Shown here: positions 25,832 through 57,960 of the stretch, in pieces | How the letters are laid out: each line of letters opens with the position of its first letter | How positions within the stretch are numbered: position 1 is the stretch's first letter | Assembly (NCBI GenBank): GCA_050295575.1 | Contig: JBNKPX010000002.1 | Location: 1,817 to 65,816, forward strand | Direction of reading: 5' to 3' | Length of the DNA: 64,000 nt | DNA from: Gammaproteobacteria bacterium | Lineage (GTDB): Bacteria; Pseudomonadota; Gammaproteobacteria; GCA-001735895 | Notes under the pieces: model-generated | The model's database searches: none | Told to the model about the DNA's origin: nothing | Seen by the model: the letters and a program-made list of their open reading frames with translations, nothing else | Position numbers and translations under genes: made by a program

Positions 25832-26818
25832 TCAAGAAGGCAAAAACTCGATTGGATAGGTCACCGTTACCGGTTTGACATCCTTGCTACCAAAGTTGAA
25901 TGCCTTAATACGTTTGGCCAGACCGGACTCCAGACTTTTATCATTCAGGGCACTGGACACAATCACCAGATCAGTAACCTTACCACTGGCTGCGATGGTT
26001 ATGCGAAATATGATTTTACCCTTTAGCCCCGGGTTCTTACGTCTGGCACGATTATACAGACGCGTTAACTGTCCTTTATTCTGATCAAGGATCAGACTGA
26101 TTTCTTCCTCTGCACGTATTTGCCCGACAGCTGATTTTGTGGAGGTTTTTGCGCTAGCAAGCTTTGTTTTCTTACCTTTTGGAGTTTCCTGAGCAACCAG
26201 AGATTGTTTCACCTGGCTGATTTCTCGCTGTGATAGCCTGGTTGTACCACGGGCTTGAATTAATTGTTGATCAGCAACTCCCTGACTACCCTTGCCTGCA
26301 TCGGCAAGTAATAAGTCACGTGTTTTCTTTTTGGTGTCTACAACTGCTGCTCGGGACCCACCAGCCTGAACGGCTGCACCGACCATACTGCTAATAGAAT
26401 CCGTATCCATTAAATCTGATAGTTCATTGCTGAGTGCCAGCAGGCCACTATCAGCCGCCTTTTCACGCGCATTTTTTTGTGTTTGTGTTAAAGGCTTGTC
26501 GATCTTTTTGTCCTGAATCTTCTTAACGACAGGCTTAGGTTTTGGCTTTGGCTTAGGCTTGGGTTTTGGTTTGGGCTTAGGCTTGGGTTTTACAATTTTC
26601 GGCTGCGTCTTTTTTTTTTCGAGCAGGAAATTAGCGATACGAGGTGGTATTTTTACGTGAGCTTTTCGTTCAACAGGAGGCAGGTTGATCGAGGATAGAA
26701 TAAATGCAGCTGAAAACATCAGCACTACAACAACTACTGTAATGAGATGAAACCGACGATCAGCTGGACTTTGTAGTGACCAGTTTAATGCTAGTTCATG
26801 GTAACGATTCAAAGTCAT
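25832..26818 (-). CDS. TonB-like energy transducer with (KP)10 spacer and AgmX/PglI-type C-terminal domain
   Basis: 328 aa with an N-terminal TM anchor FHLITVVVVVLMFSAAFILSSI and a (KP)10 rigid linker. The C-terminal roughly 80 aa (GKIIFRITIAASGKVTDLVIVSSALND...VTVTYPIEF) has a TonB_C-like pattern. 4-nt overlap with upstream exbD. Confidence 0.8.
   Translation of the reverse strand: MTLNRYHELALNWSLQSPADRRFHLITVVVVVLMFSAAFILSSINLPPVERKAHVKIPPRIANFLLEKKKTQPKIVKPKPKPKPKPKPKPKPKPKPVVKKIQDKKIDKPLTQTQKNAREKAADSGLLALSNELSDLMDTDSISSMVGAAVQAGGSRAAVVDTKKKTRDLLLADAGKGSQGVADQQLIQARGTTRLSQREISQVKQSLVAQETPKGKKTKLASAKTSTKSAVGQIRAEEEISLILDQNKGQLTRLYNRARRKNPGLKGKIIFRITIAASGKVTDLVIVSSALNDKSLESGLAKRIKAFNFGSKDVKPVTVTYPIEFLPS
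26531..26590 (-). repeat. 60-nt hexanucleotide tandem repeat encoding (Lys-Pro)x10
   Basis: aggctt/aggttt/tggctt... units read directly. An A10 homopolymer (T10 on the plus strand, 26610-26619) lies 19 nt upstream in the same CDS. Confidence 0.95.
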
Positions 26819-27333
26819 CCTGCCTGACCTCGAGATGCTGCTTTCTGCATAGTTGCAAAAGCGATATGGGTGTAATTAACCTCACGACATGAGGCTAATA
26901 TCTTTCTTAACAATTGATAGGAGATTTCTTCATCACCCATAACAGTAATAGCTTTGCCAGTATCGGCCTGCTGTGTACCTTCAATAATAGTGGTTCTTGA
27001 CGACTGAAATGTTAACTCATCGACCAGCCCTTTGATGAGAATATCTTCTTTATCAATTTCATCGGCGATATTGGCGACTTCCCTGCCCTGTAAGAGGATC
27101 TTTTCCTTGTTGACAAATATTACCAGGGTTTCTTTTGGAGCCTGAGTTGCCACAGAGGTCGGTAAACGAATATCTTTTTTACTGGGTAGCTGTTGAACAT
27201 TAGATGAACTCACCAGCAGGAAGAAGACCAGAATAGTGAAAATATCCATCAAGGAAACGAGATTAAGCGCAGGTCTTTTACGCTGTTCGTGGTGCCTCTC
27301 CATGCGTTTTGCACGCTTTGACATCTTCATCAT
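26815..27333 (-). CDS. exbD: ExbD/TolR family protein (second copy)
   Basis: 172 aa. Basic N-terminus then LNLVSLMDIFTILVFFLLV TM, with a periplasmic ExbD-like domain. 4-nt overlaps on both sides. Confidence 0.85.
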   Translation of the reverse strand: MMKMSKRAKRMERHHEQRKRPALNLVSLMDIFTILVFFLLVSSSNVQQLPSKKDIRLPTSVATQAPKETLVIFVNKEKILLQGREVANIADEIDKEDILIKGLVDELTFQSSRTTIIEGTQQADTGKAITVMGDEEISYQLLRKILASCREVNYTHIAFATMQKAASRGQAG

Positions 27334-27863
27334 TGCTTAACTTCCTCAGTAGCCCCTGTATCCTCAGTCGCCTGAATATCAGGGGCATCACCTATAGAGA
27401 TATTTGGGAACAACTCTACAGTTTCCACATCAGTGACGTTTACCACATCAGCACTACGAACTCTATCCATAACCTGAATCAGTGTCCTGTAACTCACCTT
27501 GCGATCCAGCAACAGGGTTATATTCTGTTCATCTGGAAATCGAGATTTGATCTCAACCAGAATGTCGGTAAAGGCTTTCCAGTTTGTTTTATCATTATCA
27601 CGCGCCAGATACTTGATACGCCCCAGATTAGCATCTCGAATTTCAAAGCTATCAGGTGTTATCAATAATTCTAGCTGTAACTTTATCTGCTCCTGTTGGG
27701 CTGCTTTACTATTTTTGGATGGTAAATTGAGTTCCAGGATAGTAATGCGTGAAAAAACCGCAGTGATCAGTAGAAAAGGAACCAGTATCACCATTAAATT
27801 AAGAAATGCTGTGATATTGAGCTCCACAGTTTCCTTAACCATTTTTCTTCTGACCAACTTCAT
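27330..27863 (-). CDS. exbD: ExbD/TolR family protein (first copy)
   Basis: 177 aa. ELNITAFLNLMVILVPFLLI TM signature and a periplasmic domain. Confidence 0.85.
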   Translation of the reverse strand: MKLVRRKMVKETVELNITAFLNLMVILVPFLLITAVFSRITILELNLPSKNSKAAQQEQIKLQLELLITPDSFEIRDANLGRIKYLARDNDKTNWKAFTDILVEIKSRFPDEQNITLLLDRKVSYRTLIQVMDRVRSADVVNVTDVETVELFPNISIGDAPDIQATEDTGATEEVKQ

Positions 27864-27879
27864 CGTGCAATTAACCTGT

Positions 27880-28497
27880 CTATTCTTCGGATATCAGATT
27901 CAGGCATTTCACTGCCGCCATCTCGATGTTATCAACCAGACGGGCTGTTTTAGTGACTAGAAAAGAATGGATCAGAATAAGAGGGATTGCAGCAACCAGC
28001 CCAAATGCGGTGGTATTCATAGCTACTGAAATACTCGATGACAACAGGTCCGCTTTTTCAGCTGGATCGGCACCGGCAACTGCGGTAAATGCCTGGATCA
28101 GGCCAATGATGGTCCCAAGTAGACCTAACAGTGTAGCAATATTGGCAAAGGTGGCGAGATAGTGTGTACGTTCTTCCAGGTCAGGAAGCACTTCCATCAT
28201 TCCCTCTTCCATTGCCGACTCTATCACCTCTCTAGAGGCGTTGGCAGATTTACGTGCAAAGCCATAGTTCAGCATCACCGCTAGTGGTGTTTTTACAGTC
28301 TCAGTTAATTTAAGCGCACGATCATAATCCTGAGCTTTTAACATAGGTACAATCTGGCCCCATATTTTCTTGGTTTTACCCTGAGTTTGCATAATGAAAA
28401 TAAAGCGTTCGATAGCTATCGCCAGACCAAGCGCAAGAACCAACAGGATGGGATACATGAATGTACCACCTGTTTGAAAAAATTTAACTAGTTCCAT
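27880..28497 (-). CDS. exbB: MotA/TolQ/ExbB proton-channel protein
   Basis: 205 aa, three TM helices. C-terminal LLGLLGTIIGLIQAF...AMNTTAFGL motif of the ExbB/TolQ family. Confidence 0.9.
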   Translation of the reverse strand: MELVKFFQTGGTFMYPILLVLALGLAIAIERFIFIMQTQGKTKKIWGQIVPMLKAQDYDRALKLTETVKTPLAVMLNYGFARKSANASREVIESAMEEGMMEVLPDLEERTHYLATFANIATLLGLLGTIIGLIQAFTAVAGADPAEKADLLSSSISVAMNTTAFGLVAAIPLILIHSFLVTKTARLVDNIEMAAVKCLNLISEE

Positions 28498-28632
28498 GAA
28501 ACATCCTCGTGTTCAATCAAGTTACATAAAGGGGTGATAATTAATAAGATGGGGTGGAGTTTATTCATAAATTCTCTAAAGTCCATGTACGGAGCATAAA
28601 TGGCTTAAATATCAACGTATTAGTGCGTGATA

Positions 28633-28857
28633 TTATTCGTTATCCTGATTTCGAAGAAAAGTGATAGTCTGCATAAAAAGTGAATTTTTTTCATCTTCCT
28701 CACCGGTATCACCCTTTGCCTTAATGCCATTCATTTGAAGATCGATATTGTCCAGAATTTCTTTTCTTTGCCTACGATAATCTTCGAATCCTATATGATT
28801 CTGATAATAATCAATAGATAAATCTCTTAACACAGCAGAAATGCCTTTATCATCCAT
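28633..28857 (-). CDS. small cytoplasmic protein, function unknown
   Basis: 74-aa ORF starting 8 nt after the kinase stop, with a charged C-terminal half. No family recognised. Confidence 0.5.
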   Translation of the reverse strand: MDDKGISAVLRDLSIDYYQNHIGFEDYRRQRKEILDNIDLQMNGIKAKGDTGEEDEKNSLFMQTITFLRNQDNE

Positions 28858-28865
28858 ACTAAACC

Positions 28866-31787
28866 CTATATCTCTCTCAGTACTCTAAAACCGGTAGATG
28901 TATCTGCCTTGCCATTGTGAGCTTTTGAAGTGCTTATTGTACAGCTTTCCATAGGATCGAGGAAGGAGCCGCCTACCGCTTCCAGTTTTCGACCGCTTTG
29001 GTACACCCATTCCTGTACATTACCCACATAGTTAACAAGCCCCCAGTCATTTTGGCTGCCTACCGTATAGTAGACCAAATCTCCACCTTTTTGAAACCCT
29101 CTGGTGCTGAGTTCGCAGTTTCTATTGGGATCTAGTTTTTTACTACGAGATTTCGCTGCATGAAGCCATTCCTTTTTACTCGGCAAGCGATACTTTTTAC
29201 CTGATTGGCTGCTAAGCCAGGAAAGATAAGCCTCGACCTGGCCAATTGATACCCCCGAGACTGGAAGCTGGTCATTTTTCGATAGCTTGCTGCAGATACC
29301 CTTTGCCTCACAAAACTGATTATATTCTCCTATCGAAATTTCATACTTGGTAATAGCGAAGGGCTTAATATTGTTGCTTCCAGGAATAACAACCATTTCC
29401 GGGCCATAACTGGCATTCTTTAGCTTATCCTTACACATTGCTCTTTTGCCACGTCTACCAAGTCCAGCCAGAGATATGTCACATGGATCTCTGGATTGAA
29501 TATTGATTTGTGACAATAATGGCGAGCTAAATAGCTTTAGACTGTATTTTTTTGCATCTAAAGCCCGCTCGGGGAATGATTTACCTATTTGAATAATACA
29601 TCCAGCCAATGAGCGAACGATAGTATTCTCAATCTTTGAATATCGTCCGGGATCCAGTTGTTTAAGCTTTTTTATACCAATTTCAAAGTTGCGCATATTG
29701 ATGCGTCCCTGACATTCAAGCAGATTATTTACATTGTCTAGTGCGATATTGAACTGATCGGTAACCTGCTGGCTTTTTTCTGCATTTACTGTTGCTTTTT
29801 GCTGTGCCAGTTTTTGTTGCTGTAATCGCTGTCTTCTTTCCTGCTCAAGCTTTTTCTTACGCTCAAGCTCTAGTTTTGCCTGTTCGATCCGCTTCTGCTG
29901 CGCAATTTCACGAGCCCTGGCTATGCTCGTAGTAAATTGATCAAGTAATGTTGTTTGAACCGCATAGCGCTTTGCTGCAACAATCAACTGCTCGGCCTGG
30001 GTATACTTTTTCTCACTGACTGCTGCTTTTATGTGTGAGACATAGAGATTAAAGATAGCCGCCATTTTTTCCTCAATCCACGGATCTGAATCACCCGTTA
30101 ATTTTTTCAGGTCAGAGATATCCTTCCAGATAGAGTCCTGCCAGAGATCAGAAAAATTGGCATTCATTATGAGCTTTACAATATTCTCCTTGTAGAAGTC
30201 AATTCTGACCTTTAACTCCAACTCATTCCTGATATCGAACTCTGAATAGGCTGGAGGTTCGGGCTCTTTGACAAAAAACAGAAAATAACTACTGATTGCT
30301 GCGGCAAAGACCAGTGCTAAAGCAGTTACCATCCAGCTCGAAGACTTAAGCTTAGGCGTTATGTCTTCTTCAAAATTACTGATAGATTCCTGTCTGTCTT
30401 CACGATCAAAAGCGATTGCCCTTTCAATAGCCTGCCACTCAAATTTCTTGATATGAGCAATTCGTTTGGGCTTTAATCCCTGTCTTTTCGCCTCGTCGGC
30501 GGGGACTTTGTTATAGGGGTGTTTACCAGTCAATACTTCGTAAGCTACACAGCCTAATGCATAAACATCATCGCGTACGTCAGGTTCCTTCCCTTCCAGC
30601 ATCTCCAGACTAGCATAGGCAGGGGTAAGCGCACCGAGATTACCTGCGTCAAAAACGGTATGGTCCTGAGGGCTCCCTTCAAGATGCTCTACCTGGGCAA
30701 CTGCACGTGCTATACCAAAATCAAATACCTTGGTCAGACCTTTTTTGGTAACGAAAACATTGCCTGGCTTAAAATCAGAATGAATAATATTGCCCGCATG
30801 AGCATGTTTTAACGCAGCGGTCATACCCCGGATGATTTCCCAGGCATCATCGGTCGGCAAACCGGTGGACTTATAACGACGGATTAACTGATCAAGTGGA
30901 TCTCCATCAAGGAATTCCATGGTCATAAATACGGTATCACCATCACGATCAAAATCATGCACATTCACAATATTCGGGTGTGCTATGCGTTGTGATTTTC
31001 TTGACTCGCGCTGTAGTGAAATAAAGGCTTCCGGGTGAGATTTGAATTCTTCACTCAATACCTTGATCGCCACATAAGGGTCACGATCTTTGGCTTCAAC
31101 CTTTAATAAATCTTTTGCCTTATAAACTATCCCCATACCGCCGGCACCAAGAACCCGCTCAAGAACAAAACGCTTCTTCAGCAGATGCTGATCAGTATAG
31201 TCAGTCCGTTTTTCTCCTGAGTCAGCCGCTCCAGCACGCTGCTCCAATGTGACAGTATGCTGCAAGCGAGTATCATCATCTATCAGGGTTTGGCTTTCAG
31301 ATGATGCTAATACTCTGGTGCGCTGAAACTGAGTTGAATCGCTTTCTCCCTGCTGCGATCGATTTTTATGTTCGCCAGTTGGGCCTGCACTTTCCTGCTC
31401 AGGCTCAAACTCTGCTGGCACTGTTATCGGGAAATCTGTTTCATCCATCGCACCCGGGGCCGTTGCAGGTTTTTTGTGCACATTGTTTGCTTTCTGAACA
31501 GCCCTGCCTGCCGGAGCAGTGTGCTTTTTAATTGCTATTCGAGTAGCATCCTGATGATTTGGTGGCTGTTGAGCTTTCGGTTTTCTGGGCGCTATACGAG
31601 TAGCATCCTTGCCTGCTCCAGTCTGTGGAGCAGCAGGTTTTCTGACTACGGTGCGGTTAGCATCCTCAGTCGTGCGAGCAGGTACTGCTGCCGGTTTTCT
31701 CACCGCAACACGCGTTTTATCAGTCGACTCCAGCCCCGGGTTTTGTGGTCTAATTACCCGTGCTTTTCCCTGTTCGTTATCCTTCAT
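28866..31787 (-). CDS. T6SS-associated Hanks-type Ser/Thr kinase (PpkA-like) with C-terminal FGE-sulfatase domain
   Basis: 973 aa. Kinase motifs GAGGMGIVYKA, VAIKVL, HSDFKPGNV, DFGIAR. TM WMVTALALVFAAAISSYFLFFV, then a periplasmic coiled coil. The C-terminal FGE/SUMF1 pattern is MVVIPG...YEISIGEYNQF...YRLPSKKEW...GNVQEWV...GGSF...GFRVLREI. ATGA overlap with pppA. Confidence 0.9.
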   Translation of the reverse strand: MKDNEQGKARVIRPQNPGLESTDKTRVAVRKPAAVPARTTEDANRTVVRKPAAPQTGAGKDATRIAPRKPKAQQPPNHQDATRIAIKKHTAPAGRAVQKANNVHKKPATAPGAMDETDFPITVPAEFEPEQESAGPTGEHKNRSQQGESDSTQFQRTRVLASSESQTLIDDDTRLQHTVTLEQRAGAADSGEKRTDYTDQHLLKKRFVLERVLGAGGMGIVYKAKDLLKVEAKDRDPYVAIKVLSEEFKSHPEAFISLQRESRKSQRIAHPNIVNVHDFDRDGDTVFMTMEFLDGDPLDQLIRRYKSTGLPTDDAWEIIRGMTAALKHAHAGNIIHSDFKPGNVFVTKKGLTKVFDFGIARAVAQVEHLEGSPQDHTVFDAGNLGALTPAYASLEMLEGKEPDVRDDVYALGCVAYEVLTGKHPYNKVPADEAKRQGLKPKRIAHIKKFEWQAIERAIAFDREDRQESISNFEEDITPKLKSSSWMVTALALVFAAAISSYFLFFVKEPEPPAYSEFDIRNELELKVRIDFYKENIVKLIMNANFSDLWQDSIWKDISDLKKLTGDSDPWIEEKMAAIFNLYVSHIKAAVSEKKYTQAEQLIVAAKRYAVQTTLLDQFTTSIARAREIAQQKRIEQAKLELERKKKLEQERRQRLQQQKLAQQKATVNAEKSQQVTDQFNIALDNVNNLLECQGRINMRNFEIGIKKLKQLDPGRYSKIENTIVRSLAGCIIQIGKSFPERALDAKKYSLKLFSSPLLSQINIQSRDPCDISLAGLGRRGKRAMCKDKLKNASYGPEMVVIPGSNNIKPFAITKYEISIGEYNQFCEAKGICSKLSKNDQLPVSGVSIGQVEAYLSWLSSQSGKKYRLPSKKEWLHAAKSRSKKLDPNRNCELSTRGFQKGGDLVYYTVGSQNDWGLVNYVGNVQEWVYQSGRKLEAVGGSFLDPMESCTISTSKAHNGKADTSTGFRVLREI

Positions 31788-32572
31788 AAATCAGTGGATT
31801 CCGGTGCCTGAGGCTTTCGCGTAGTCCCACTCTGCTCTCCTTTAACGAGTATAACTGAAACATTATCATCTGCTCCTTTATCGAGTGCCTGTTGAATCAG
31901 GCTATCTACCGCCTCCTGCAGTGGAAACTCCAGTAAGGTATCGGTAATTTCCTGAGTGCTTACCATGTTATATAAACCATCACTACATAACAGGAAAATA
32001 TCTCCCAACTGAGTACTAAAAACATTTATATCAAGATAGAGATCAGGCTGAGCACCTACCGCACGGGTGATCACGTTGGCGTCAGGATGATTTTCAGCCT
32101 CATCAGGTGTTAAGTATCCCTGCTGTATCTGTTCCTGAACCTGACTATGATCACGTGAGAGCTGTTGTAATTGGCGATTTCTAAAGCGATATAATCGAGA
32201 ATCTCCGGCCCATATACAAACACCCACGCGTCCCTGTATAAGTAAAGACACGATTGTACTACCGAGCATTCTGCCTTCGAGCATGATATCTGAATACTCA
32301 AGAATTCTATCATTGACATCGATAAGTCGATCTTCAATGGTAGTCACTACTTCATTCAAGGTTTCAAAAGTAGGCAGATCTTCCAGACAGGAGACGACCA
32401 TATCACTGGCAACATTACCAGCCTCATAGCCGCCCATGCCATCGGCCACGGCCCAGAACTTCGATTCAGGTAATGCCAGCACGGAGTCTTCGTTCACTTC
32501 CCTGACCTTACCTACATTGGTATCAAGTGCCGAATTCCATAATATAGGGCGCTGTATGGTGATATCTATCAT
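31784..32572 (-). CDS. pppA: PP2C-family Ser/Thr phosphatase (PppA-like)
   Basis: 262 aa. NEDS...ADGMGGYEAGNVAS...LLCSDGL...GADDNVSVILV motifs. Confidence 0.9.
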   Translation of the reverse strand: MIDITIQRPILWNSALDTNVGKVREVNEDSVLALPESKFWAVADGMGGYEAGNVASDMVVSCLEDLPTFETLNEVVTTIEDRLIDVNDRILEYSDIMLEGRMLGSTIVSLLIQGRVGVCIWAGDSRLYRFRNRQLQQLSRDHSQVQEQIQQGYLTPDEAENHPDANVITRAVGAQPDLYLDINVFSTQLGDIFLLCSDGLYNMVSTQEITDTLLEFPLQEAVDSLIQQALDKGADDNVSVILVKGEQSGTTRKPQAPESTDL

Positions 32573-32581
32573 TAATAAATC

Positions 32582-33307
32582 TTACATTTTCAGGTTGTAG
32601 GGTATCTTCCAGTTTCTTTTCTGCCACTGACCATCCAGCATAGCAGCGATACCTGAAACCGGTGGTAAGCCCTGAGTACAGAAAATAAGTGGTCCTATCA
32701 GTTCAGAACCTTCGGTCTGCCACAGGCTAAAACTGGAGCCTTCTGTGTTCAGGCTAGCGTCCAATAAATACGGTAGTGCATTATTAATTTCGGTCTCGGG
32801 TGTTTCATCAAGCCCGATAATATACGGACCACTCTCACCAAGATTCGAAGTGGCCTGATAGGCTTCTCGATTATCCTGCTGCAAGAGGTTGATTGATGAA
32901 TCCAGGCCATCGACATCCATTTTTCCATCCAGAGCTGACAGGCAATAGGACTCTACCTGTTGATACCATTCCTGCTGAGAAAACAAAAAACTCACCACAC
33001 TGTGATGGGATGCTATCGGTTTAATGATACTAACCGGAAAAAACCGCCCAACTCGATCAACACTGGGCATGATGACACCTGCCCAGATTTTTTCATCAAT
33101 CACACCAGAAGATAATACGAAGCGCCATATCGGACTGGTAAGATAAATATCTAGCCAGTCTTCGCCTATCTGCTCTCTGGAGGCTGACACATACAGTTGC
33201 AGCCATTCATCCCATTGATTGATAAAGGCAGGGGTTAAATTACGAAATATAAAGTCACCATGTGCGGGTAACTTTCCATATATACCGGTGAGCTTAGGAG
33301 TCTGCAT
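32582..33307 (-). CDS. tagF: type VI secretion-associated protein TagF (DUF2094)
   Basis: GIYGKLPAHGDFIFRNL...WDEWLQ...SPIWRFVL...PSVDRVGRFFPVSI is the TagF signature. Starts immediately after the tssM stop. Confidence 0.87.
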   Translation of the reverse strand: MQTPKLTGIYGKLPAHGDFIFRNLTPAFINQWDEWLQLYVSASREQIGEDWLDIYLTSPIWRFVLSSGVIDEKIWAGVIMPSVDRVGRFFPVSIIKPIASHHSVVSFLFSQQEWYQQVESYCLSALDGKMDVDGLDSSINLLQQDNREAYQATSNLGESGPYIIGLDETPETEINNALPYLLDASLNTEGSSFSLWQTEGSELIGPLIFCTQGLPPVSGIAAMLDGQWQKRNWKIPYNLKM

Positions 33308-37854: not shown

Positions 37855-37897
37855 AAAGCTTTCCAATAGTTGATCTGGATGATGGCCCTTGCATGTT

Positions 37898-39793: not shown

Positions 39794-39803
39794 ATTTTGC
39801 CCT

Positions 39804-44999: not shown

Positions 45000-45028
45000 C
45001 CACCTCTTACCACAAGAGGTGGTTTTTT
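45000..45028 (+). terminator. strong intrinsic terminator/attenuator between tssC and its paralogue
   Basis: CCACCTCTT-ACCAC-AAGAGGTGG perfect 9-bp stem followed by TTTTTT and preceded by AAA. Lies 16 nt after the tssC stop. Confidence 0.75.
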
Positions 45029-45045
45029 ACCCAAGTTCGAGAAAA

Positions 45046-50068: not shown

Positions 50069-52756
50069 ATGATAACAATTGACTTAAAATCACTAGTTGG
50101 AAAACTCAATGAAAACTGCCGAGCAGGGCTCGAAGGGGCAGCAGGACTTTGTCTGGCACGCACGCATTATAATGTTGAAATTGAGCACTGGATTCTAAAA
50201 TTACTGGAAACACCTGATAGCGATATTGTTGCACTGGTTGAAAAGTTCGAGTTAGACCAGGGTAAGTTGATGGCTGATCTTAATAAAGAACTTGATCGAT
50301 TAAAATCAGGCAATACACGCGCACCAGCCCTCTCGCCTAATGTCGTAGAGCTGAGTAAAAATGCCTGGATGCTGGCATCGGTAGAATACAGTCATCCACA
50401 AACTACATCTGCACATATACTGGCGGCACTATTGCTGGATGATAGCCTGCGTCGCTCGACTGAAATAACATCAGGAGAGCTTAAGAAAATTGCTCCCGAA
50501 TCATTACGTGCCGTGTTACCCAGTATTGTCGGCAGCACCAGTGAATCAGTTTCAGTAGCTATTGGAGATACCTCGGATTCACAAAAATCTACTTCAGCGA
50601 CACCAACCAGCACCCCTTCGCTGGACAAATTCACCATCAACCTGACCCAGGATGCTAAAAACGGCAAGATAGACCCTGTACTGGGGCGTGACGAGGAAAT
50701 CCGACAGATTGTCGATATACTGATCCGCCGCCGTCAGAACAACCCTATCCTCACTGGTGAAGCCGGTGTGGGTAAAACTGCCGTAGTTGAAGGCTTTGCC
50801 TTACGTATTGCTTCTGGTGACGTGCCTGCACCACTTAGAGGTGTGACCGTGCTAAGTCTCGATCTGGGCCTGTTACAGGCAGGAGCCAGCGTCAAGGGTG
50901 AGTTTGAAAACCGTCTGAAATCAGTCATTGCAGAAGTCAAGGCTTCACCAGACCCAATCATCATGTTCATCGATGAAGCCCACACCATGATAGGTGCTGG
51001 TGGCAAAGAGGGACAGGGAGATGCCGCCAACCTGCTCAAGCCAGCGCTTGCTCGCGGTGAGTTAAGAACTATTGCCGCTACTACCTGGGCAGAATATAAA
51101 AAATACTTCGAACGCGATCCTGCTTTGACTCGACGCTTTCAGGTGGTAAAGATTGAGGAACCCGACGAATCTAAAGCCATCGATATGATGCGTGCCATCT
51201 CAACCATGTTATCCATCCACCATGGCGTACGCATTATGGATGAAGCCATCGTCGCATCGGTTAAACTCTCCAGTCGTTATATCACCGCACGACAATTGCC
51301 CGATAAATCGGTCAGCCTGCTGGATACCGCCTGTGCACGCGTCGCACTCAGCCAGAGTGCTACACCCGCAGCCGTCGAAGACACGCAGAGACGCATCACT
51401 CAAACCGAAGCCAATATTATTTCCCTGCAACGTGAGAATGCCACGCTGGGCAATTGCGATGATCGCATTGCAGAATTAGAGCAGGAAACAATAGCGCTAA
51501 AAGAAGAACTGGAAACACAAAAAGAGCAGTGGGAAAAGGAAAAAGAAATTGTTTCTCAGATACACAAGTTACAGAGCAGCATAGAAGATGATTTTCATGC
51601 TCAGGGCCTATCCAAAGAAGAAATGGCTGAGCCTGATGCGCTGCAACAGCTACCCGAAGAAGACCGCGAACGCATTAAAGCCGAGTTACATCAATTGATG
51701 CAGCAATTAACCGAGGTGCAATCTGGCAACCCAATGATACAGGTTAATGTAGACGGTCAGGCTATAGCCGAAGTGGTGGCCAACTGGACAGGTATACCCG
51801 TAGGTAAAATGGTATCCGACGAAATTCATTCAATCCTTGATCTTGCCGATAGGCTTAATGAGCGAGTGATCGGCCAGAGACATGCACTTGAATCAATCGC
51901 CAAAAGCATCCGTACCTCACGTGCAGGACTAACCGACCCACGCAAACCGATTGGCGTGTTCTTTATGGCTGGCCCCAGTGGCGTCGGAAAAACCGAAACC
52001 GCTCTGGCACTGGCCGAGGTGCTATACGGCGGCGAACACAATGTCACAACCATCAACATGTCCGAATTCAAGGAAGAACACAAAGTCTCTATGTTGCTGG
52101 GTTCACCTCCTGGTTATGTCGGATTTGGCGAAGGCGGTGTACTTACCGAAGCGGTAAGGCGTAAGCCCTATAGTATTGTTTTACTGGATGAAATGGAAAA
52201 AGCCCACCCCGGCGTGCAGGATATTTTTTACAATGTTTTTGATAAAGGCACCATCAAGGATGGTGAAGGCAGAGATATAGACTTTAAAAATACCATCATC
52301 ATCATGACCTCCAATGCCGGAGAGGAACACATCCGAGCCATCTGTGCACAGGCTGAAGAGCTACCTGATCCAGAGGTATTACTGGATAATTTCCGTCCAC
52401 AGCTGCTGCATTATTTTAAGCCCGCTTTCCTGGGTCGGACTACGCTAATCCCTTATTACCCCTTAGGTGATGAAGACCTGCTAAAAATCACCAAAATCAA
52501 TATGAACAGGATTGCGAAACGCGTTAAAGATCACTACAACGCTGAATTCAGTTATAACGAAGATGTCATGCTGCATATAGTCGCACGCAGTCAGGAAGTG
52601 GATACTGGCGCCAGAAATATAGAAAACATTCTAACCCGTACCATGCTGCCTGAAATGGCTACCGAATGTTTGTCACGTATGGCAAATAATGAATCCATTG
52701 AAAAAATTCATGTTGATGTGGATGACGATGGTAAATTCAGCTACAGCATTTCCTGA
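50069..52756 (+). CDS. tssH: T6SS AAA+ ATPase ClpV (TssH)
   Basis: 895 aa. Clp N-domain. Two Walker A boxes (GEAGVGKT, GPSGVGKT) and a middle coiled coil. Confidence 0.95.
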   Translation: MITIDLKSLVGKLNENCRAGLEGAAGLCLARTHYNVEIEHWILKLLETPDSDIVALVEKFELDQGKLMADLNKELDRLKSGNTRAPALSPNVVELSKNAWMLASVEYSHPQTTSAHILAALLLDDSLRRSTEITSGELKKIAPESLRAVLPSIVGSTSESVSVAIGDTSDSQKSTSATPTSTPSLDKFTINLTQDAKNGKIDPVLGRDEEIRQIVDILIRRRQNNPILTGEAGVGKTAVVEGFALRIASGDVPAPLRGVTVLSLDLGLLQAGASVKGEFENRLKSVIAEVKASPDPIIMFIDEAHTMIGAGGKEGQGDAANLLKPALARGELRTIAATTWAEYKKYFERDPALTRRFQVVKIEEPDESKAIDMMRAISTMLSIHHGVRIMDEAIVASVKLSSRYITARQLPDKSVSLLDTACARVALSQSATPAAVEDTQRRITQTEANIISLQRENATLGNCDDRIAELEQETIALKEELETQKEQWEKEKEIVSQIHKLQSSIEDDFHAQGLSKEEMAEPDALQQLPEEDRERIKAELHQLMQQLTEVQSGNPMIQVNVDGQAIAEVVANWTGIPVGKMVSDEIHSILDLADRLNERVIGQRHALESIAKSIRTSRAGLTDPRKPIGVFFMAGPSGVGKTETALALAEVLYGGEHNVTTINMSEFKEEHKVSMLLGSPPGYVGFGEGGVLTEAVRRKPYSIVLLDEMEKAHPGVQDIFYNVFDKGTIKDGEGRDIDFKNTIIIMTSNAGEEHIRAICAQAEELPDPEVLLDNFRPQLLHYFKPAFLGRTTLIPYYPLGDEDLLKITKINMNRIAKRVKDHYNAEFSYNEDVMLHIVARSQEVDTGARNIENILTRTMLPEMATECLSRMANNESIEKIHVDVDDDGKFSYSIS

Positions 52757-52850
52757 TATGAATGATTCAGTAATGGCTCTGCATTCCAATACAAGCGACC
52801 TCTGGCAAACAGCACCTTAGCTGCTGTCGCGTCGTAAGGAGAGTATTGGT

Positions 52851-54257
52851 ATGATCAAAAATCGTAGTTATGTGCAGAGCTTACTCGTTTCTGTTTTGCT
52901 GTTCACTGGATTGCTGCTTACATCCACTGTATCAGCAAAACAGCATGAGTTACTCAGCACTATTGAAAAGCTGGATAAAAAATTTCAAAACTTATCCATA
53001 GAATATTTTCGTACTAATACAGCCCAGGCTGAAAAAATTCACGATATAGATAAACTAGCTACAGCTGTTAAAAATTTGCAGCAACAGCAAAATATCAATG
53101 CAGCAATTCAACTTATATTTACCAATATAGACACGCTAGAGCAAAATGCATTTCACCCTTCTTTAGTCGACTTCTTTAGATTCTTACTCGAACAAAATCA
53201 ATGGTTGATGGCTAATCAAATCCAGCAGATTATTCAAAAATCAGCTGACGATCTAAACCTGATGAAGTCAAATCTCTATCTCGCTGCCTTCTATGCTGAT
53301 CATCTAAAATGGTCAAAAACCTTAACGACACTGGGAGAAAACTTTGACCAGTTAGCTGATACCGATGCAGCCTATGCCCATTTATTACAGGGCACAGCGT
53401 TGCAACACCTCAAACAACATCGTAAAGCCATCAAATGTTATGAAAAAATCCCTCTAACCTCCGGTTATACAATATATGCTCAGTTAAATACCGCAATTGC
53501 TGATATTCGTCTGGGCTGGCTCAGTGATGCGCGCAAAAAGATTAAAGCCATGATAGAAAATCCTGATATTGATACCGATGAGGAAACCAGACATCGGCTG
53601 TATCTAATTTTAGGTTATGCATTGCTGCAAAAAGAATACTACCGTGATGCACGCACGGCTTTTCGCCATATCAGCCTCGATAGTCGCTACACCAGTAAGG
53701 CCTTACTGGGTATAGCACTGAGCGCCACCAATCAGGGCGATTATATTGGTGGACTGAGTGCATTAGCAAAATTAAAACAATTCAAAACCAACGATCTGCC
53801 CTACGATGAAGCCTTTCTGGTTCAGCCTCTGTTGTACCAGAAACTGAAGCAACCGCTATCGGTAGCATCCACCTATTCAGAAGCTGTCGATCACTATACC
53901 CAGCGACTGGCCGAGGTCGAGGCCTTAATCTCAGCAAAACTGAAGCCTGACAATTTACATTTAGATACTAAAACTGGTGATGTCACCATACAGCAGTTAA
54001 GACTTGAATATAGTCAGCTATACCCTGCTTCCTTTTTTACCAATCGCAGCAGTTTAATCAAGCAATTGAAAAACACATCGCAAAGTGCACTGAAAAAGAA
54101 AATTCAAACCCTACTGCATGAATACAATAAAGCCAGCAAAACGGTTCTGGACAATTTATTACAACAACGTCAGAAATTTTTAGCCAGTTACCTGAATCAG
54201 GCTCGTTACGGTCTTGCCCGCCACTACGACAACCAGCAACGGAGTGAGCAAAAATGA
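52851..54257 (+). CDS. secreted helical-repeat (TPR-like) protein, function unknown
   Basis: 468 aa. Signal peptide ...LLLTSTVSA/KQ and a TPR-like helical-pair pattern. AAGGAGAG RBS. Its stop overlaps the next gene's start by 4 nt. Confidence 0.6.
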   Translation: MIKNRSYVQSLLVSVLLFTGLLLTSTVSAKQHELLSTIEKLDKKFQNLSIEYFRTNTAQAEKIHDIDKLATAVKNLQQQQNINAAIQLIFTNIDTLEQNAFHPSLVDFFRFLLEQNQWLMANQIQQIIQKSADDLNLMKSNLYLAAFYADHLKWSKTLTTLGENFDQLADTDAAYAHLLQGTALQHLKQHRKAIKCYEKIPLTSGYTIYAQLNTAIADIRLGWLSDARKKIKAMIENPDIDTDEETRHRLYLILGYALLQKEYYRDARTAFRHISLDSRYTSKALLGIALSATNQGDYIGGLSALAKLKQFKTNDLPYDEAFLVQPLLYQKLKQPLSVASTYSEAVDHYTQRLAEVEALISAKLKPDNLHLDTKTGDVTIQQLRLEYSQLYPASFFTNRSSLIKQLKNTSQSALKKKIQTLLHEYNKASKTVLDNLLQQRQKFLASYLNQARYGLARHYDNQQRSEQK

Positions 54258-57064
54258 CTAGCCTGACACGCCTGTTGAAAACGATCATCCCGTTCATCAT
54301 CATAACTTTGCTGAGTGCCTGCCTGGCGGTACCGGATAGATCTACACAACCGAAAACCCTTAGCGAAATTGATAGAAAAGCCCCCAACAGCAAGGTTTTT
54401 GTTAAACATAAATCAGAAGAAGAGATCAGAAAGGCTTACACCGAATATTTAAATAACTCGGTAATAGACGATAAATCTCGTCTGGATGCCTTAACTCGAC
54501 TAGCAGAACTGGAATATAGCTCCAGTAACAAACTGATTAATGCTGACGGTGACATTGACAAGGTTAATCCAGTTGAAGAACAGCTCTACTATCAACGACT
54601 GGAAAGAACTATCGACCTGTTAAAAACATCGATCAGAGATTACCCTAAAGCCAAAGAAAACGGGATCCTGCTATATCAATTAGCCAAAGCTCAATCACAG
54701 AATAATCAACATAATGAATCCATAAAATCTTTAATCACGCTGGCTGAAAAATTTCCGAAGAGCCCTTTCTACATTGAAGCCCAATTCCGTATAGCCGAAG
54801 ACGCTTTTTCAAGACAGAGTTATAGTGAAGCAGAATATGCCTATAGTGAAGTCATCAATGCCCCTGGAAACGCCGTATTTTATGAAAAAGCACTGTTCAA
54901 GCGCGGCTGGGCACGCTTCAAGCAGCAATACTATTCAGACGCCAACGATGACTTTATCGAAGCCATAACAAACCATAATTTTAAAGCCCAGGACAAGCTC
55001 GACACCGCTGAAAAAGAACAGTTTGATGAGTACTTTCGTTCTATCGCACTTTCTTTTTCTTATTTAAACGATCCGCAACAACTGGCTAGCTATTTCCAGA
55101 ATCTTCCTGACTTCAGGTATACCTATCACACCTATGAAGTCATCAGCGAACTATTCCAGAAGCAGGAGCGTTATTCGGATGCAGTAAGAACCCATCGCCA
55201 GTTCATTAAAGATTTTCCAAAATCAGATAACATCCCCTACTCTTATCTGAAGATCATCGAAATCTGGAAAAACAGTGGTTTTAATCAGAAAATTTACCAG
55301 GCTATCGAAGCCTTTTACGTCAACTATAACCCCGACAGTAAGTACTGGATAAACCAGAATGAAGATTCAAAGGTTAATCGCCACATCAGACGCGCTTTAA
55401 GAGAGTACGTCGTATTGATGAGCGCCTATTACCATAACCGTTATCAATCCACTGCTGCAAAAGTCGATGTAGCCAATGCACAATTATGGTACCAGAGGTA
55501 TCTATCCCACTACGCTGCCTATGCACAGCAGGATAATATCTACTTTTTATATGCCGAGTTACTCACTCAACTTAAACAGGATGAAAAAGCCTTCAGTTAT
55601 TATGAGCAGGCCGCATTTGATAATGACCTGATCCTGAATAAAGAAGCAGCCTATGCATCGGTTATCAGTAGTGACAAGTTATTTCGCAAGCTGAAGCAGC
55701 AAGCCTATCTGGACAAACTTATTGATTACTCGCACAAGTTTGCGCAGCAGTTTACAGATGACAAACGGGCCCATCAGGTATCACTACATGCTGCAGAACT
55801 GGCCTATCAGTCACATAAATACAAAGAGACCATCGAACTGGCTGACCTTGCAGCGCCCAAAAGCCCTCCAAAATCACTGGCTTATATTAACAATCTAAAA
55901 GCTGCATCATACTTCAGCCTGAATGAGTTTGAGACTGCAGAAGAGATTTATGGCAAGCTGCTAAAATCAACAAAAGCCAGCGACAAGCAATACGCAAACT
56001 TCAAGAACAAACTAGCCTTAAGCATCTACCGACAGGGTGAAGCCAGTCAAAAAGCCGAGGATATCAACCGCTCTATCTATCATTACGCGCGAATCTCCGA
56101 AATCGTCCCCACTACGTCGACGGCAGCCACCGGCCTGTATGATGCCATTGCACTCAATATTCAACACAAGCAATGGAATTCATCGGTGAATCTAATCAAA
56201 CGATTCCAGAAACTTTACCCCAGGCATAAACGGGCTGCTGACGTATCCAAAAAACTTTCCCTGGCCTACCTGGGATCTAATCAGGGTATAAAAGCGGCAC
56301 AGGAATTTGAGAAGATTGCACAGGTAGATAATAACCGTGAAGTTCAGGCGGCAGCACTCTGGCAGGCTGCTGAACTGTATCAGGAAAAGAATAAAACCGA
56401 TGAAGCGATTAAAGCCTACAAAAAATACACTGAACAACCCAATATTCCGCATACACAACGCCTTGAAGCCAGTCAAAAGATTGCTCAGCTGTATGCGAAA
56501 AAAGGTAACCTCAAATACAGTAACATCTGGCTATACAGAATCCTCAAGGCTGATGGCAAGGCACTGAATAATGTGAAAACCGATCAAAGTCGTCAGATTA
56601 CCTCAGAGTCTTATCTGGCTCTGGCCCGCTTTGAGAAAAATCGCTTTGAAAACATCAAGCTGGTTAAACCACTGAAGAAAAACCTGCGTAATAAAAAACA
56701 GGCCATGCAAAGTTCTGTAGAATTATTTGCCAAGGCATCACTCAATAAAATTTATCCCATCGCCACAGAATCAACCTTCTCGATAGGGAAAATTTACCGC
56801 GACTTCAGTAAATCACTGTTAAATTCAGAACGTCCCGATAATCTGAATGCTGAAGAACTTGATCAGTATGAAATATTACTGGAAGATCAGGCTTTCCCAT
56901 TTGAGGATAAGGCCATTGAATTTTTTGAAATCAATTTAGCGCGCATTAAAGACGGCCTGTACAACGAGTGGATCCAGCAAAGTCATAAACAATTGATTTC
57001 ATTATTCCCGGTTCGCTATGACCGCAAACCTCGGGTCGATGATTACGTGAAGGAAATCAAATAA
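54254..57064 (+). CDS. large TPR-repeat lipoprotein
   Basis: 936 aa. Lipobox ITLLSAC. Many YbgF/BamD-type TPR units (e.g. PKSPFYIEAQFRIAEDAF, ALFKRGWARFKQQYYSDA). Confidence 0.8.
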   Translation: MTSLTRLLKTIIPFIIITLLSACLAVPDRSTQPKTLSEIDRKAPNSKVFVKHKSEEEIRKAYTEYLNNSVIDDKSRLDALTRLAELEYSSSNKLINADGDIDKVNPVEEQLYYQRLERTIDLLKTSIRDYPKAKENGILLYQLAKAQSQNNQHNESIKSLITLAEKFPKSPFYIEAQFRIAEDAFSRQSYSEAEYAYSEVINAPGNAVFYEKALFKRGWARFKQQYYSDANDDFIEAITNHNFKAQDKLDTAEKEQFDEYFRSIALSFSYLNDPQQLASYFQNLPDFRYTYHTYEVISELFQKQERYSDAVRTHRQFIKDFPKSDNIPYSYLKIIEIWKNSGFNQKIYQAIEAFYVNYNPDSKYWINQNEDSKVNRHIRRALREYVVLMSAYYHNRYQSTAAKVDVANAQLWYQRYLSHYAAYAQQDNIYFLYAELLTQLKQDEKAFSYYEQAAFDNDLILNKEAAYASVISSDKLFRKLKQQAYLDKLIDYSHKFAQQFTDDKRAHQVSLHAAELAYQSHKYKETIELADLAAPKSPPKSLAYINNLKAASYFSLNEFETAEEIYGKLLKSTKASDKQYANFKNKLALSIYRQGEASQKAEDINRSIYHYARISEIVPTTSTAATGLYDAIALNIQHKQWNSSVNLIKRFQKLYPRHKRAADVSKKLSLAYLGSNQGIKAAQEFEKIAQVDNNREVQAAALWQAAELYQEKNKTDEAIKAYKKYTEQPNIPHTQRLEASQKIAQLYAKKGNLKYSNIWLYRILKADGKALNNVKTDQSRQITSESYLALARFEKNRFENIKLVKPLKKNLRNKKQAMQSSVELFAKASLNKIYPIATESTFSIGKIYRDFSKSLLNSERPDNLNAEELDQYEILLEDQAFPFEDKAIEFFEINLARIKDGLYNEWIQQSHKQLISLFPVRYDRKPRVDDYVKEIK

Positions 57065-57080
57065 CAGGGTTAAGCGCATA

Positions 57081-57731
57081 ATGAAGACATCATCTACATA
57101 CACATCATCCCTGTTCTGCTCGAAAAGCATACGAGTTATTGCTGCATTTTTGGTACTACAACTATTCACTGCCTGTAGCCAGAAATCGCCACCGCCTCCA
57201 ACAGTGGAAACCGCACCGGTAAAAGTTCAGCCACAGACTCCGGTGATTGAAGATAAAGTAATAGATAGTGAAATGTATCAACAGGGTCTGGATGCATTAG
57301 CACTGAATGACTTCAGCAACGCAAAAAAAATATTTCAGCAATTCATCAAGGATAATCCCACTCTCTCGGGTGCCTACAGCAATCTGGCATTGATAGAATA
57401 TAAGCAGAAAAATTATGACCAGGCCTTGAAGTTAATAGAAATTGCAATCTCTATAAATCCACAGCAGGCGGCAGCCTTTCACTTAAGAGCTCTACTCTAT
57501 CTACAACAGGGCAAGATAAAACTCGCCCGTGATGATTATCAAATGGCTATCAAGTTTAAGCCAGATTACACTAACGCACACTATAACCTGGCCCTGCTTT
57601 ATGATATTTATCTACAGGAAATCGCGCTGGCGATAGAGCACTATAATATTTACCTGTCGCTCACCACGGAAAAAGATACCGCAACACGCGAGTGGGTTAA
57701 CCATCTGAAAAACACGCTGAAAAATGGCTAG
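57081..57731 (+). CDS. small TPR-repeat lipoprotein
   Basis: 216 aa. Lipobox QLFTAC. Canonical TPRs (AYSNLALIEYKQKNYDQALKLIEIAISINP...). Confidence 0.8.
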   Translation: MKTSSTYTSSLFCSKSIRVIAAFLVLQLFTACSQKSPPPPTVETAPVKVQPQTPVIEDKVIDSEMYQQGLDALALNDFSNAKKIFQQFIKDNPTLSGAYSNLALIEYKQKNYDQALKLIEIAISINPQQAAAFHLRALLYLQQGKIKLARDDYQMAIKFKPDYTNAHYNLALLYDIYLQEIALAIEHYNIYLSLTTEKDTATREWVNHLKNTLKNG

Positions 57732-57960
57732 AATCTTTATACTGATCCTGTTTCTGGGCTTACAGCCTGCACCATTACTGGCGCAGGATAATGATGAAAT
57801 CGAGCTACGCATTACCACTATCAAGAGCAATAAAGAATTACCTAAAATACTTTATATCGTCCCCTGGAAGGATGTAAAAGCGACCCCAAAACCGCAGAGA
57901 CAACTGGTTCTACACAGTCTGTTTGGTGACTTATTCGAGCCAATTCTACCCAGACCTTAA
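57724..57960 (+). CDS. small secreted protein, function unknown
   Basis: 78 aa. Signal peptide MARIFILILFLGLQPAPLLA/QD. 8-nt overlap with the upstream TPR gene suggests translational coupling. Confidence 0.55.
   Translation: MARIFILILFLGLQPAPLLAQDNDEIELRITTIKSNKELPKILYIVPWKDVKATPKPQRQLVLHSLFGDLFEPILPRP

Follow-up and report, generated by a model that had tools for sequence, protein, structure and literature searches.

Why should a type VI secretion system (T6SS) be bracketed by the parts of a proton-driven envelope motor? The question is raised by a 64,000-nucleotide stretch of gammaproteobacterial DNA, hereafter the window, in which the region under study, positions 25832-57960, carries 25 genes in our open reading frame (ORF) map. 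Sixteen of these are T6SS genes; at one end they are flanked by a motor half, with ExbB-like, ExbD-like and TonB-like genes, and at the other by a tetratricopeptide repeat (TPR) half of four genes named here by the length of their products, p468, p936, p216 and p78. From the comparisons below we infer that the T6SS locus acquired a full Agl/Glt core complex, which would serve it as a dedicated accessory module, and the role that we favour for this module is that of a sensor for the phosphorylation switch of the secretion system.

The minus strand reads TagH, TssJ, TssK, TssL, TssM, TagF, a PppA-type phosphatase, a Ser/Thr kinase, orf74, ExbB, ExbD, ExbD and a TonB-like protein, and the plus strand reads TssA, TssB, TssC, TssC', TssE, TssF, TssG, ClpV, p468, p936, p216 and p78. 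The two flanking halves lie 24 kb apart on opposite strands with the 16 T6SS genes in between, the split layout that a preliminary description of this DNA had reported. Its gene list, junction distances and family assignments were reproduced for all 25 genes with the ORF map and NCBIfam and Pfam searches. The junctions are tight: the kinase gene is followed after 8 nt by orf74, after a further 135 nt by the ExbB-like gene and after 16 nt by the first ExbD gene, and the ExbD1/ExbD2 and ExbD2/TonB-like junctions are overlaps of 4 nt each. On the plus strand, ClpV ends at 52756, 94 nt ahead of p468; p468 and p936 overlap by 4 nt, 16 nt separate p936 from p216, and p216 and p78 overlap by 8 nt. 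On the coding strand both junction gaps (28498-28632 and the gap between ClpV and p468) are free of terminator-like and promoter-like sites, so that co-transcription of the T6SS genes with the flanking halves is possible and not contradicted. The 135-nt spacer between orf74 and exbB (28498-28632) contains several blocks kept among close relatives, for example GGACTTTAGAGAA and TTGATTGAACACGAGGATGTTTCATG, which could serve the motor genes as an internal promoter or as a signal for translation.

The kinase and the flanking genes are as follows.

28866-31787, minus strand: PpkA-type Ser/Thr kinase, 973 aa (Pfam Pkinase, 1.2e-37; FGE-sulfatase, 1.6e-14)
28633-28857, minus strand: orf74, small acidic cytoplasmic protein between the kinase and exbB, no family match
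27880-28497, minus strand: ExbB/TolQ/AglR-like proton-channel subunit, 205 aa, three transmembrane helices (Pfam MotA_ExbB, E 6.7e-28)
27330-27863, minus strand: ExbD/TolR-like protein 1, AglQ position, 177 aa (Pfam ExbD, E 7.9e-18)
26815-27333, minus strand: ExbD/TolR-like protein 2, AglS position, 172 aa (Pfam ExbD, E 4.4e-17)
25832-26818, minus strand: TonB-like/GltG-like protein, 328 aa (NF033768, AgmX/PglI C-terminal domain, 69.7 bits, cut-off 40)
52851-54257, plus strand: p468, secreted helical-repeat protein, GltC position (signal peptide; weak TPR matches)
54254-57064, plus strand: p936, GltD-like TPR lipoprotein (LSAC lipobox; TPR and CpoB/YbgF-like matches)
57081-57731, plus strand: p216, GltE-like TPR lipoprotein (FTAC lipobox; strong TPR matches)
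57724-57960, plus strand: p78, small secreted protein, the 'additional gene' of gammaproteobacterial core operons (signal peptide)

These flanking genes match a set that has been recognized before, and always in one piece. Luciano et al. (2011) defined the core complex as aglR, aglQ, aglS, gltC, gltD, gltE and gltG plus one extra gene, and found that outside the Deltaproteobacteria these genes are always contiguous in a single region, with unknown function (PMC3169522); a 2020 preprint still calls the original function of the complex unknown. Their Table S3 gives the operon order GltC-GltD-GltE-small gene-AglR-AglQ-AglS-GltG, as in Mpe_A1224-1231 and CJA_3312-3319 (PMC3169522). Position by position, the products in that table compare with those of the window as follows (Table S3, PMC3169522).

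Position 1: GltC-like, 550-690 aa; here p468, 468 aa
Position 2: GltD-like, 922-1016 aa; here p936, 936 aa
Position 3: GltE-like, 162-263 aa; here p216, 216 aa
Position 4: locus tag skipped, size not listed; here p78, 78 aa
Position 5: AglR, 217-245 aa; here the ExbB-like protein, 205 aa
Position 6: AglQ, ~170-188 aa; here ExbD1, 177 aa
Position 7: AglS, 162-185 aa; here ExbD2, 172 aa
Position 8: GltG-like, 321-371 aa; here the TonB-like protein, 328 aa

The window genes fit this order and, except for the first gene and ExbB, which are shorter, these sizes too. Moreover, in 15 more distant species p468-p936-p216-(p78)-ExbB-ExbD-ExbD-TonB-like forms one uninterrupted operon that has no T6SS gene within 10 kb of it. 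Because these species carry the whole set as a single operon, we identify the two ends of the locus as the halves of one putative ancestral eight-gene Agl/Glt core operon. The earlier assignment of the flanks to an Agl/Glt-core-type set is borne out by the order and sizes in Table S3, by the GltG/AgmX match at the C terminus of the TonB-like protein and by the 15 single-operon species. The seven core genes that it had counted are all present, with the amendment that the seventh is the 468-aa protein at the GltC position, the 78-aa protein being the 'additional gene' and not GltF. Table S3 also records Hahella chejuensis, in which a copy of the TPR half on its own (HCH_02601-02603) lies ~23 locus tags upstream of a complete core operon (HCH_02626-02634) (PMC3169522).

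Family models and a structure prediction place the individual proteins at differing depths within this set. The TonB-like protein has an N-terminal transmembrane helix, a (KP)n proline-rich linker and an AgmX/PglI-type C-terminal domain. Against the GltG model it aligns with positions 337-645 of 650 (E 3.6e-15), at a score of 55.6 against a cut-off of 650; TonB models match more weakly (6e-7). The comparison of TonB_C with AgmX/PglI models that the preliminary description had suggested comes out on the AgmX/PglI side, that model being above its cut-off and TonB_C just under its own. The accompanying suggestion of searching the Glt families bore out in part: the C-terminal half of GltG aligns, the GltE model reaches p216 with 23.6 bits against a cut-off of 225, which is a match at the level of TPR units, and the NCBIfam GltD and GltC models give no match at E<=1 to p936, p468 or their homologues in contiguous core operons, which instead match CpoB-, BamD- and PorW-like TPR models. 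In an AlphaFold2 model the C-terminal domain of the TonB-like protein has a pLDDT of ~80-86, and the top 16 Foldseek matches to it are the C-terminal domains of TonB, HasB or FusB, with TM-scores of 0.57-0.64 on the target and root-mean-square deviations of 2-3 Å over ~70 residues; as modelled, this domain has the fold of the TonB C-terminal domain. A sequence search of the PDB with the TonB-like protein, p936 and p468 gave no match.

The stator genes carry an asymmetry. The ExbB-like protein is 62-95% identical to its T6SS-linked homologues. In ExbD2 the transmembrane Asp is retained in 72 of 72 homologues, whereas in ExbD1 an Asn replaces the Asp at this site in 49 of 49 T6SS-linked homologues; among contiguous-core homologues, 6 of 11 have Asp there. 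Because the transmembrane Asp of ExbD2 is invariant, the stator as a whole is probably proton-competent. The small gene ahead of the motor is likewise distinctive: orf74 encodes no hydrophobic segment and is specific to the T6SS-linked form, with tblastn matches of 35-78% identity in most of the closer linked loci and in none of the contiguous-core loci.

On the other flank, relationships are carried by full-length similarity and position in the operon. The homologue of p468 is the first gene of the contiguous core operons (21-35% identity), and p936 aligns with the second along its entire length (27-36% identity). The AlphaFold2 model of p936 is an all-alpha TPR solenoid of ~880 residues (mean pLDDT 86), to which Foldseek finds generic TPR scaffolds only; against the tol_pal_ybgF model, p936 reaches 54.8 bits and one of its homologues 94.8 bits. 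p78 is 39-66% identical to the gene between the GltE-like gene and ExbB in contiguous operons and to its counterparts in other TPR halves.

Is the association of this set with a T6SS a peculiarity of one genome? We scanned one genome per GTDB species by alignment to the TonB-like protein and mapped the 25 window proteins onto the 80 loci recovered. The order TssM-TagF-PppA-kinase-(orf74)-ExbB-ExbD-ExbD-TonB-like, the same as in the window, is found in 47 species, at 36-88% identity of the TonB-like protein and 43-91% identity of TssM. Three more species have the motor convergent with ClpV (L016, L018, L026), and one more has a kinase-motor block at a contig end. The linked taxa include Kangiellaceae, Aliikangiella, Colwellia echini, Psychromonas, Agarilytica, Teredinibacter, Cellvibrio, Agaribacterium, Thiotrichaceae, Thiohalomonadaceae, Candidatus Tenderia and a tubeworm symbiont, and the closest relatives of the window are gammaproteobacterial metagenome-assembled genomes (85-88% identity of the TonB-like protein). 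A locus from a member of the Polyangiaceae (L086) has a protein with an AgmX tail alone among unrelated genes and is not a glt locus.

The linkage persists through at least five gene orders. The kinase lies directly upstream of the motor in 47 of 47 fully informative T6SS-linked loci, and also in L060, and the genes past the TonB-like gene vary from locus to locus. In three loci (L042, L056, L139) the kinase-motor block runs into tssA-tssB-tssC, all in one direction; in L123 the TPR half is inverted behind clpV; and in L007, L089 and L090 it is a separate operon that lies tail-to-tail with a VgrG/PAAR or Hcp/VgrG/PAAR cluster. In L060 (OZ246012.1, 1101356-1122318) the block is kinase-ExbB-ExbD-ExbD-TonB-like; the TPR half lies upstream in divergent orientation, and no further T6SS gene occurs within 10 kb. 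There the motor is followed by an ORF of >3161 aa without a Pfam match.

A second scan was anchored on the TssC paralogue, so that T6SS loci were sampled regardless of the motor. Thirty of these loci have enough sequence after clpV: p468/p936 follow directly in 18, an insert gene comes first in 7 and unrelated genes follow in 5. The insert gene is the one found in L006, 6.5 kb ahead of the TPR half. In that locus, genes without Pfam matches (689, 309, 351 and 581 aa) occupy 2460-8378 between clpV and the TPR half, and VgrG/Hcp/PAAR-type genes lie tail-to-tail with the TPR half there too; one to four such insert genes also occur in L093, L097, L100, L103, L104, L109 and L114. They are candidates for cargo or further accessory genes. 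In L088, an operon at 1042-13671 reads TssC'-TssE-F-G-ClpV-p467-p933-p219-p78 with unrelated genes upstream, and tssA, tssB and tssC therefore lie elsewhere.

The phylogeny agrees with this picture. In a neighbour-joining distance tree of concatenated ExbB, ExbD, ExbD and TonB-like sequences, built without a Myxococcus outgroup, every T6SS-linked motor set falls in one clade, split with bootstrap support of 98/100 from a basal group of eleven, of which eight are contiguous core operons, two are truncated loci and one is a motor on its own. The T6SS-linked clade also encloses a few sets that are not linked, and the contiguous, T6SS-free versions are mostly in the basal clade. As placed by this tree, the T6SS-linked motors group with the core-complex motors, either as sister to the contiguous sets or nested among them. 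The preliminary description had held, before any comparison was made, that its proposal would fall if related genomes lacked the linkage and carried the same genes contiguous and unlinked; the linkage is kept in 47 species, with the contiguous unlinked sets mostly in the basal clade. Its conservation suggests that the motor set works for the secretion system, and chance adjacency of the two was rejected, the linkage being conserved through rearrangements.

What kind of T6SS, then, would such a module serve? All core genes, tssA-C, E-H and J-M, score above NCBIfam cut-offs, and PpkA, PppA, Fha and TagF are all present, the kinase and phosphatase matching generic models only. In addition to the kinase, the T6SS genes of the locus are the following.

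31784-32572, minus strand: PppA-type PP2C phosphatase (NF033484, E 6.2e-65)
32582-33307, minus strand: TagF (TIGR03373, 141.9 bits)
33308-36865, minus strand: TssM (TIGR03348, 1114.9 bits, end-to-end alignment)
36907-37926, minus strand: TssL of the 'ancestral' type (DotU, residues 108-311, the sole domain found; transmembrane helix 283-301)
37898-39235, minus strand: TssK (TIGR03353, 472 bits)
39266-39793, minus strand: TssJ lipoprotein, probable start (TIGR03352, 95.4 bits over residues 75-222 of the long ORF)
39804-41372, minus strand: TagH/Fha (TIGR03354, 328 bits; Pfam FHA and T6SS_FHA_C)
41813-42928, plus strand: TssA (TIGR03363, 293 bits)
42973-43494, plus strand: TssB, sheath (TIGR03358, 198 bits)
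43494-44984, plus strand: TssC, sheath (TIGR03355, 705 bits)
45019-46536, plus strand: TssC'/TssC2, divergent paralogue of the large sheath subunit (TIGR03355, 470 bits; Pfam VipB and VipB_2)
46554-49958, plus strand: TssE, TssF and TssG, baseplate (all three above cut-offs)
50069-52756, plus strand: ClpV/TssH (TIGR03345, 1273 bits)

For TssJ the gene list had taken the longest ORF (39266-39994), which overlaps tagH by 191 nt; the true start is probably the Met at 39793, directly before the lipobox LLLLTTLSAC, which leaves a 10-nt gap after tagH. TssC' is found in essentially all related loci recovered, at 55-80% identity, and is a marker of this T6SS lineage. Homologues of Hcp, VgrG, PAAR and adaptor (DUF2169, DUF6484) proteins were not found in the window by tblastn with queries from related loci; although the rest of the T6SS is complete, hcp (tssD) and vgrG (tssI) are presumably encoded elsewhere, as in L090.

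By its gene content the locus is an HSI-I-like T6SS with a threonine-phosphorylation switch composed of a PpkA-type kinase, PppA, TagH/Fha and TagF. Two components known from other T6SSs were not found in it. In HSI-I the gene order is tagQRST-ppkA-pppA-tagF-tssM...fha and tssA-B-C-hcp-tagJ-tssE-F-G-clpV-vgrG, with tagTSRQ beside ppkA (PA0070-PA0074). TagQRST relays outer-membrane damage and acts upstream of PpkA (PMC13584744). Neither TagQ nor an ABC-type TagS/TagT pair appears in the gene list and family scans of the locus. The second component is an anchor in the cell wall: TssL stops 38 residues past its transmembrane helix and lacks a peptidoglycan-binding domain, this C-terminal extension being absent in 25 of 25 related loci, and loci with an ancestral TssL normally carry a compensating peptidoglycan-binding product of a T6SS accessory gene (TAG) (2026 T6SS accessory-gene review, PMC13584744). 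Domain scans found no OmpA/MotB-type peptidoglycan-binding domain and no TagL/TagN-type protein among the proteins of the locus.

The kinase itself offers a clue to what may fill the first of these places. It consists of a repeat-rich N terminus, a kinase domain (208-452), one transmembrane helix (484-502) and a periplasmic region with an FGE-sulfatase domain (804-930). This periplasmic domain belongs to COG1262, the family to which TagR is assigned (PMC13584744). Residues ~20-100 contain four repeats of the form D-x-T/N-R-[VI]-[AV]-x-[RK]-K-[PH], and two motifs that resemble them (DKTVFKQ and DRTVIRP) occur at residues ~28-50 of TssL; together these may be phospho-threonine or FHA-docking sites. 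Phosphorylation of TssL is known in Agrobacterium.

We therefore come to the reading that we favour, to which we assign a probability of a little over 40%: that the motor/TPR module would be a proton-powered envelope sensor that feeds the PpkA-type kinase, replacing TagQRST. Under such a scheme the ExbB/ExbD stator, with one ExbD retaining the proton-binding Asp, would draw on the proton gradient to drive cycles of the TonB-like arm across the periplasm. The arm would reach toward p936 and p216, both tethered to the outer membrane, together with periplasmic p468 and p78. Outer-membrane damage, deformation or cell contact would alter this contact, and the kinase would detect the change with its TagR-like periplasmic domain. 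By phosphorylating Fha, and possibly TssL too, it would license the assembly of a T6SS at that site. Since TssL lacks a peptidoglycan anchor, the same scaffold across the envelope may in addition contribute to rooting the membrane complex.

We favour a sensor because it is the kinase that invariably adjoins the motor (in 47 of 47 loci) and because, in L060, the kinase heads the motor operon facing the TPR half where no other T6SS gene lies within 10 kb. The motor also sits at the place of the absent TagQRST, the relay of outer-membrane damage to PpkA, and the periplasmic domain of the kinase belongs to the TagR family; further, the invariant ExbD2 transmembrane Asp makes a proton-competent stator probable. 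The tightest conserved unit, kinase-(orf74)-motor, points to a signalling role at least as much as to a mechanical one.

Several considerations weigh against this sensor. The position of the motor at the end of an operon can reflect a tolerated insertion site and not function. L060 is a single case, and a T6SS may be present at another place in its genome. The TPR half runs in the direction of the sheath, baseplate and ClpV genes and not in that of the kinase, an orientation that fits a structural role equally well. For the peptidoglycan anchor that TssL lacks, some component must step in, and the motor/TPR module is a candidate for this. A few members of the T6SS-associated clade (L047/L048, L031 and L037) have no T6SS gene within 10 kb. 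As to the sampling, the 80 loci were found through two short peptide patterns, which makes their proportions indicative and not unbiased, and loci from metagenomes are not independent species.

The best-surviving alternative is a structural or mechanical accessory, in which the motor set acts directly on the T6SS membrane complex; we regard it as possible, though on the unlikely side. In one version TssJLM would be fastened to peptidoglycan and the outer membrane by the ExbD/TolR-like periplasmic domains together with the TPR lipoprotein scaffold, which would stand in for TagL or an 'evolved' TssL; in the other, proton-motive force would help the complex to assemble through the wall or to open for firing. 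The missing peptidoglycan-binding extension of TssL and the missing compensating TAG speak for an anchor, and the TPR half follows tssA...clpV after a 94-nt gap free of terminator-like sites. The modelled p936 would be a long lipid-tethered TPR scaffold, the relatives in Myxococcus are force-transmitting envelope machines, and another secretion system, the type IX, is powered by proton-driven motors. Set against this are the identity of the invariant partner of the motor, which is the kinase and not TssL, TssM or TssJ; the retention in L060 of kinase, motor and TPR half without structural T6SS genes nearby; and the fact that the TPR half can lie far from the core T6SS genes. Binding of peptidoglycan by these ExbD-like proteins is, moreover, an assumption. 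Sensor and structural roles are not mutually exclusive. The stronger proposition that the T6SS of this lineage depends on a Tol/Ton-type motor, with an AglRQS/GltG-like arm and TPR scaffold that would gate or position its assembly or firing, we consider doubtful at present. If it is true, proton-motive force would be an energy or control input of a T6SS, and the ancestral job of the Agl/Glt core would lie in mechanosensing or actuation within the envelope, on behalf of other envelope machines.

It is a good deal less probable that the two systems are neighbours without shared function, the core complex having an envelope job of its own and the T6SS having been inserted into or rearranged around it, and the two travelling together only by sharing a genomic island. 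Such independence is what the contiguous core operons of 15 species without a T6SS, and the few members of the T6SS-associated clade named above, would lead one to expect. It accords poorly with a linkage that is found at 36-88% identity of the TonB-like protein and 43-91% identity of TssM, across many families and with differing flanking genes, and that survives at least five gene orders. It accords no better with junctions as tight as 8 nt and 4-nt overlaps, with an orf74 specific to the T6SS-linked form, with all linked motors forming one clade, or with TPR halves that, when parted from ClpV, adjoin VgrG/Hcp/PAAR genes.

Some T6SSs, of the TseM/TseF type, secrete metal-binding effectors that are imported through an outer-membrane receptor. 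A Ton-like energizer tied to T6SS activity, serving either the import of such an effector or a Tol-like repair that protects the envelope after firing or attack, is nevertheless very improbable here: a TonB-type C-terminal fold, which docks on TonB boxes, a stator that retains its Asp and the CpoB-like TPR units of p936 all fit it, but neither the window nor the related loci inspected hold a gene for a TonB-dependent receptor, TolB or Pal, the proteins fall far under the ExbB, ExbD, TonB, TolQ and TolR equivalog cut-offs, and the set belongs to the Agl/Glt core family and not to Ton or Tol. The Ton equivalog scores are 47 against a cut-off of 206 for ExbB, 27 against 153 for ExbD and 29.5 against 315 for TonB (the last in the proline-rich region only), and the Tol scores are 62 against 221 for TolQ and 35.8 against 127 for TolR. 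An ordinary Ton iron-uptake system was rejected on the absence of receptor and siderophore genes, the low equivalog scores and the Agl/Glt family assignment. In keeping with what had first been reported, no TonB-dependent receptor, Tol-Pal or siderophore gene is present among the large ORFs of the window or in the scanned flanks; among the annotated related loci inspected, none has a TonB-dependent receptor, TolB or Pal, and a partner elsewhere in the genome is possible.

The surroundings of the region are housekeeping or signalling genes. Downstream of the TonB-like gene, after 180 nt and likewise on the minus strand, comes a gene (24284-25651) for a protein with cNMP-binding and EAL (c-di-GMP phosphodiesterase) domains; it is retained in L001, an 85%-identical relative, and L005 has a GGDEF gene at that place. 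These neighbours hint at a possible second-messenger link to the locus. Just beyond the other end, 59814-62180 (plus strand) encodes a 788-aa pyridine-nucleotide-disulphide oxidoreductase fused to AIRS/AIRS_C (SelD-like) domains. An Rfam scan of the window found no RNA family.

The association appears to have been overlooked, even where both parts were on record. Teredinibacter turnerae carries the same linked arrangement. Its T6SS (TERTU_1639-1668) has been described as HSI-I-like, sharing 17 of 22 genes and including PpkA and Fha (T. turnerae genome paper), and TERTU_1670-1672 (205, 173 and 165 aa), two locus tags past the published T6SS boundary, are listed as an orphan AglRQS copy (Table S3, PMC3169522). 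Neither of these papers connected TERTU_1670-1672 with the T6SS: the 2011 core-complex paper (PMC3169522) makes no mention of type VI, and the T. turnerae genome paper none of ExbB or TolQ. The 2026 review of T6SS accessory genes does not mention ExbB, TolQ, TonB, protons, TPR or gliding. The preliminary description knew of no earlier report of the link, and we found none in the open-access literature searched; subscription journals may hold one.

Since 2011, the function of the core complex outside gliding bacteria has been an open question, to which the T6SS partnership brings a first functional context and a testable handle. Carriers are available among culturable bacteria (Teredinibacter, Aliikangiella, Colwellia echini, Psychromonas, Agaribacterium and a Cellvibrio sp.). 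For the T6SS field, this would be a nine-gene accessory module absent from the current TAG catalogue, and the first there with a proton-driven motor of the Tol/Ton type. Because the lineage lacks both TagQRST and a known peptidoglycan anchor, the module probably represents a new way of triggering or rooting a T6SS. This lineage is common among gammaproteobacteria of marine sediments and vents and among symbionts, including those of animals, where the regulation of T6SSs has ecological weight.

How does the locus compare with known systems? With the core complex it shares the same eight genes in the same internal order, including one MotA/TolQ/ExbB-type and two ExbD/TolR-type genes in tandem; it differs in having the set divided in two, with a motor half at one outer end of a T6SS and a TPR half at the other, and in that the kinase and orf74 precede the motor. 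With HSI-I, the H1-T6SS of P. aeruginosa, it shares kinase, phosphatase, Fha and TagF in the same order beside tssM, an envelope-spanning accessory set that includes outer-membrane lipoproteins right after the kinase, and a COG1262/FGE-sulfatase (TagR-type) periplasmic domain, which here is fused to the kinase. Unlike HSI-I, it has orf74 and the motor half in the place of tagTSRQ, TssC' in that of hcp and tagJ, and the TPR half in that of vgrG, so that its accessory set is made up of an ExbB/ExbD/TonB-like, presumably proton-driven motor and TPR proteins.

The Agl-Glt gliding and Agl-Nfs spore-coat machineries of Myxococcus xanthus have in common with the window a TolQR-type stator with two ExbD-like subunits, a TonB-like arm with an AgmX/PglI C-terminal domain, and TPR partners in the periplasm and outer membrane. 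Both of those machineries turn proton-motive force into work across the envelope (PMC3169522; 2020 preprint). By comparison, the window set is without the GltA/B/H/K barrels, GltF/I/J, MglA/AglZ and CglB, its TonB-like protein is half as long as GltG, and its source organism is not known to glide. The peptidoglycan anchors TagL, TagN, TagP, TagW and 'evolved' TssL are found in loci whose TssL lacks an anchor of its own, as here; in this locus, by contrast, any anchoring must come from the ExbD/TolR-like domains or the TPR scaffold. Tol-Pal with CpoB (YbgF) has similar TolQ-like, TolR-like and TolA/TonB-like components and partners with CpoB-type TPR units, whereas the window set has two TolR-like subunits and neither TolB nor Pal.

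A proton-driven motor, GldLM, reportedly powers type IX secretion. The likeness to GldLM is one of concept, that of a proton-driven inner-membrane motor dedicated to a secretion machine; the proteins are unrelated, the secretion system is another one, and a motor that powers secretion would here be conjecture. Overall, the locus is not categorically new and its coupling to a motor is a prediction, and we would describe it as a T6SS with a new type of accessory module.

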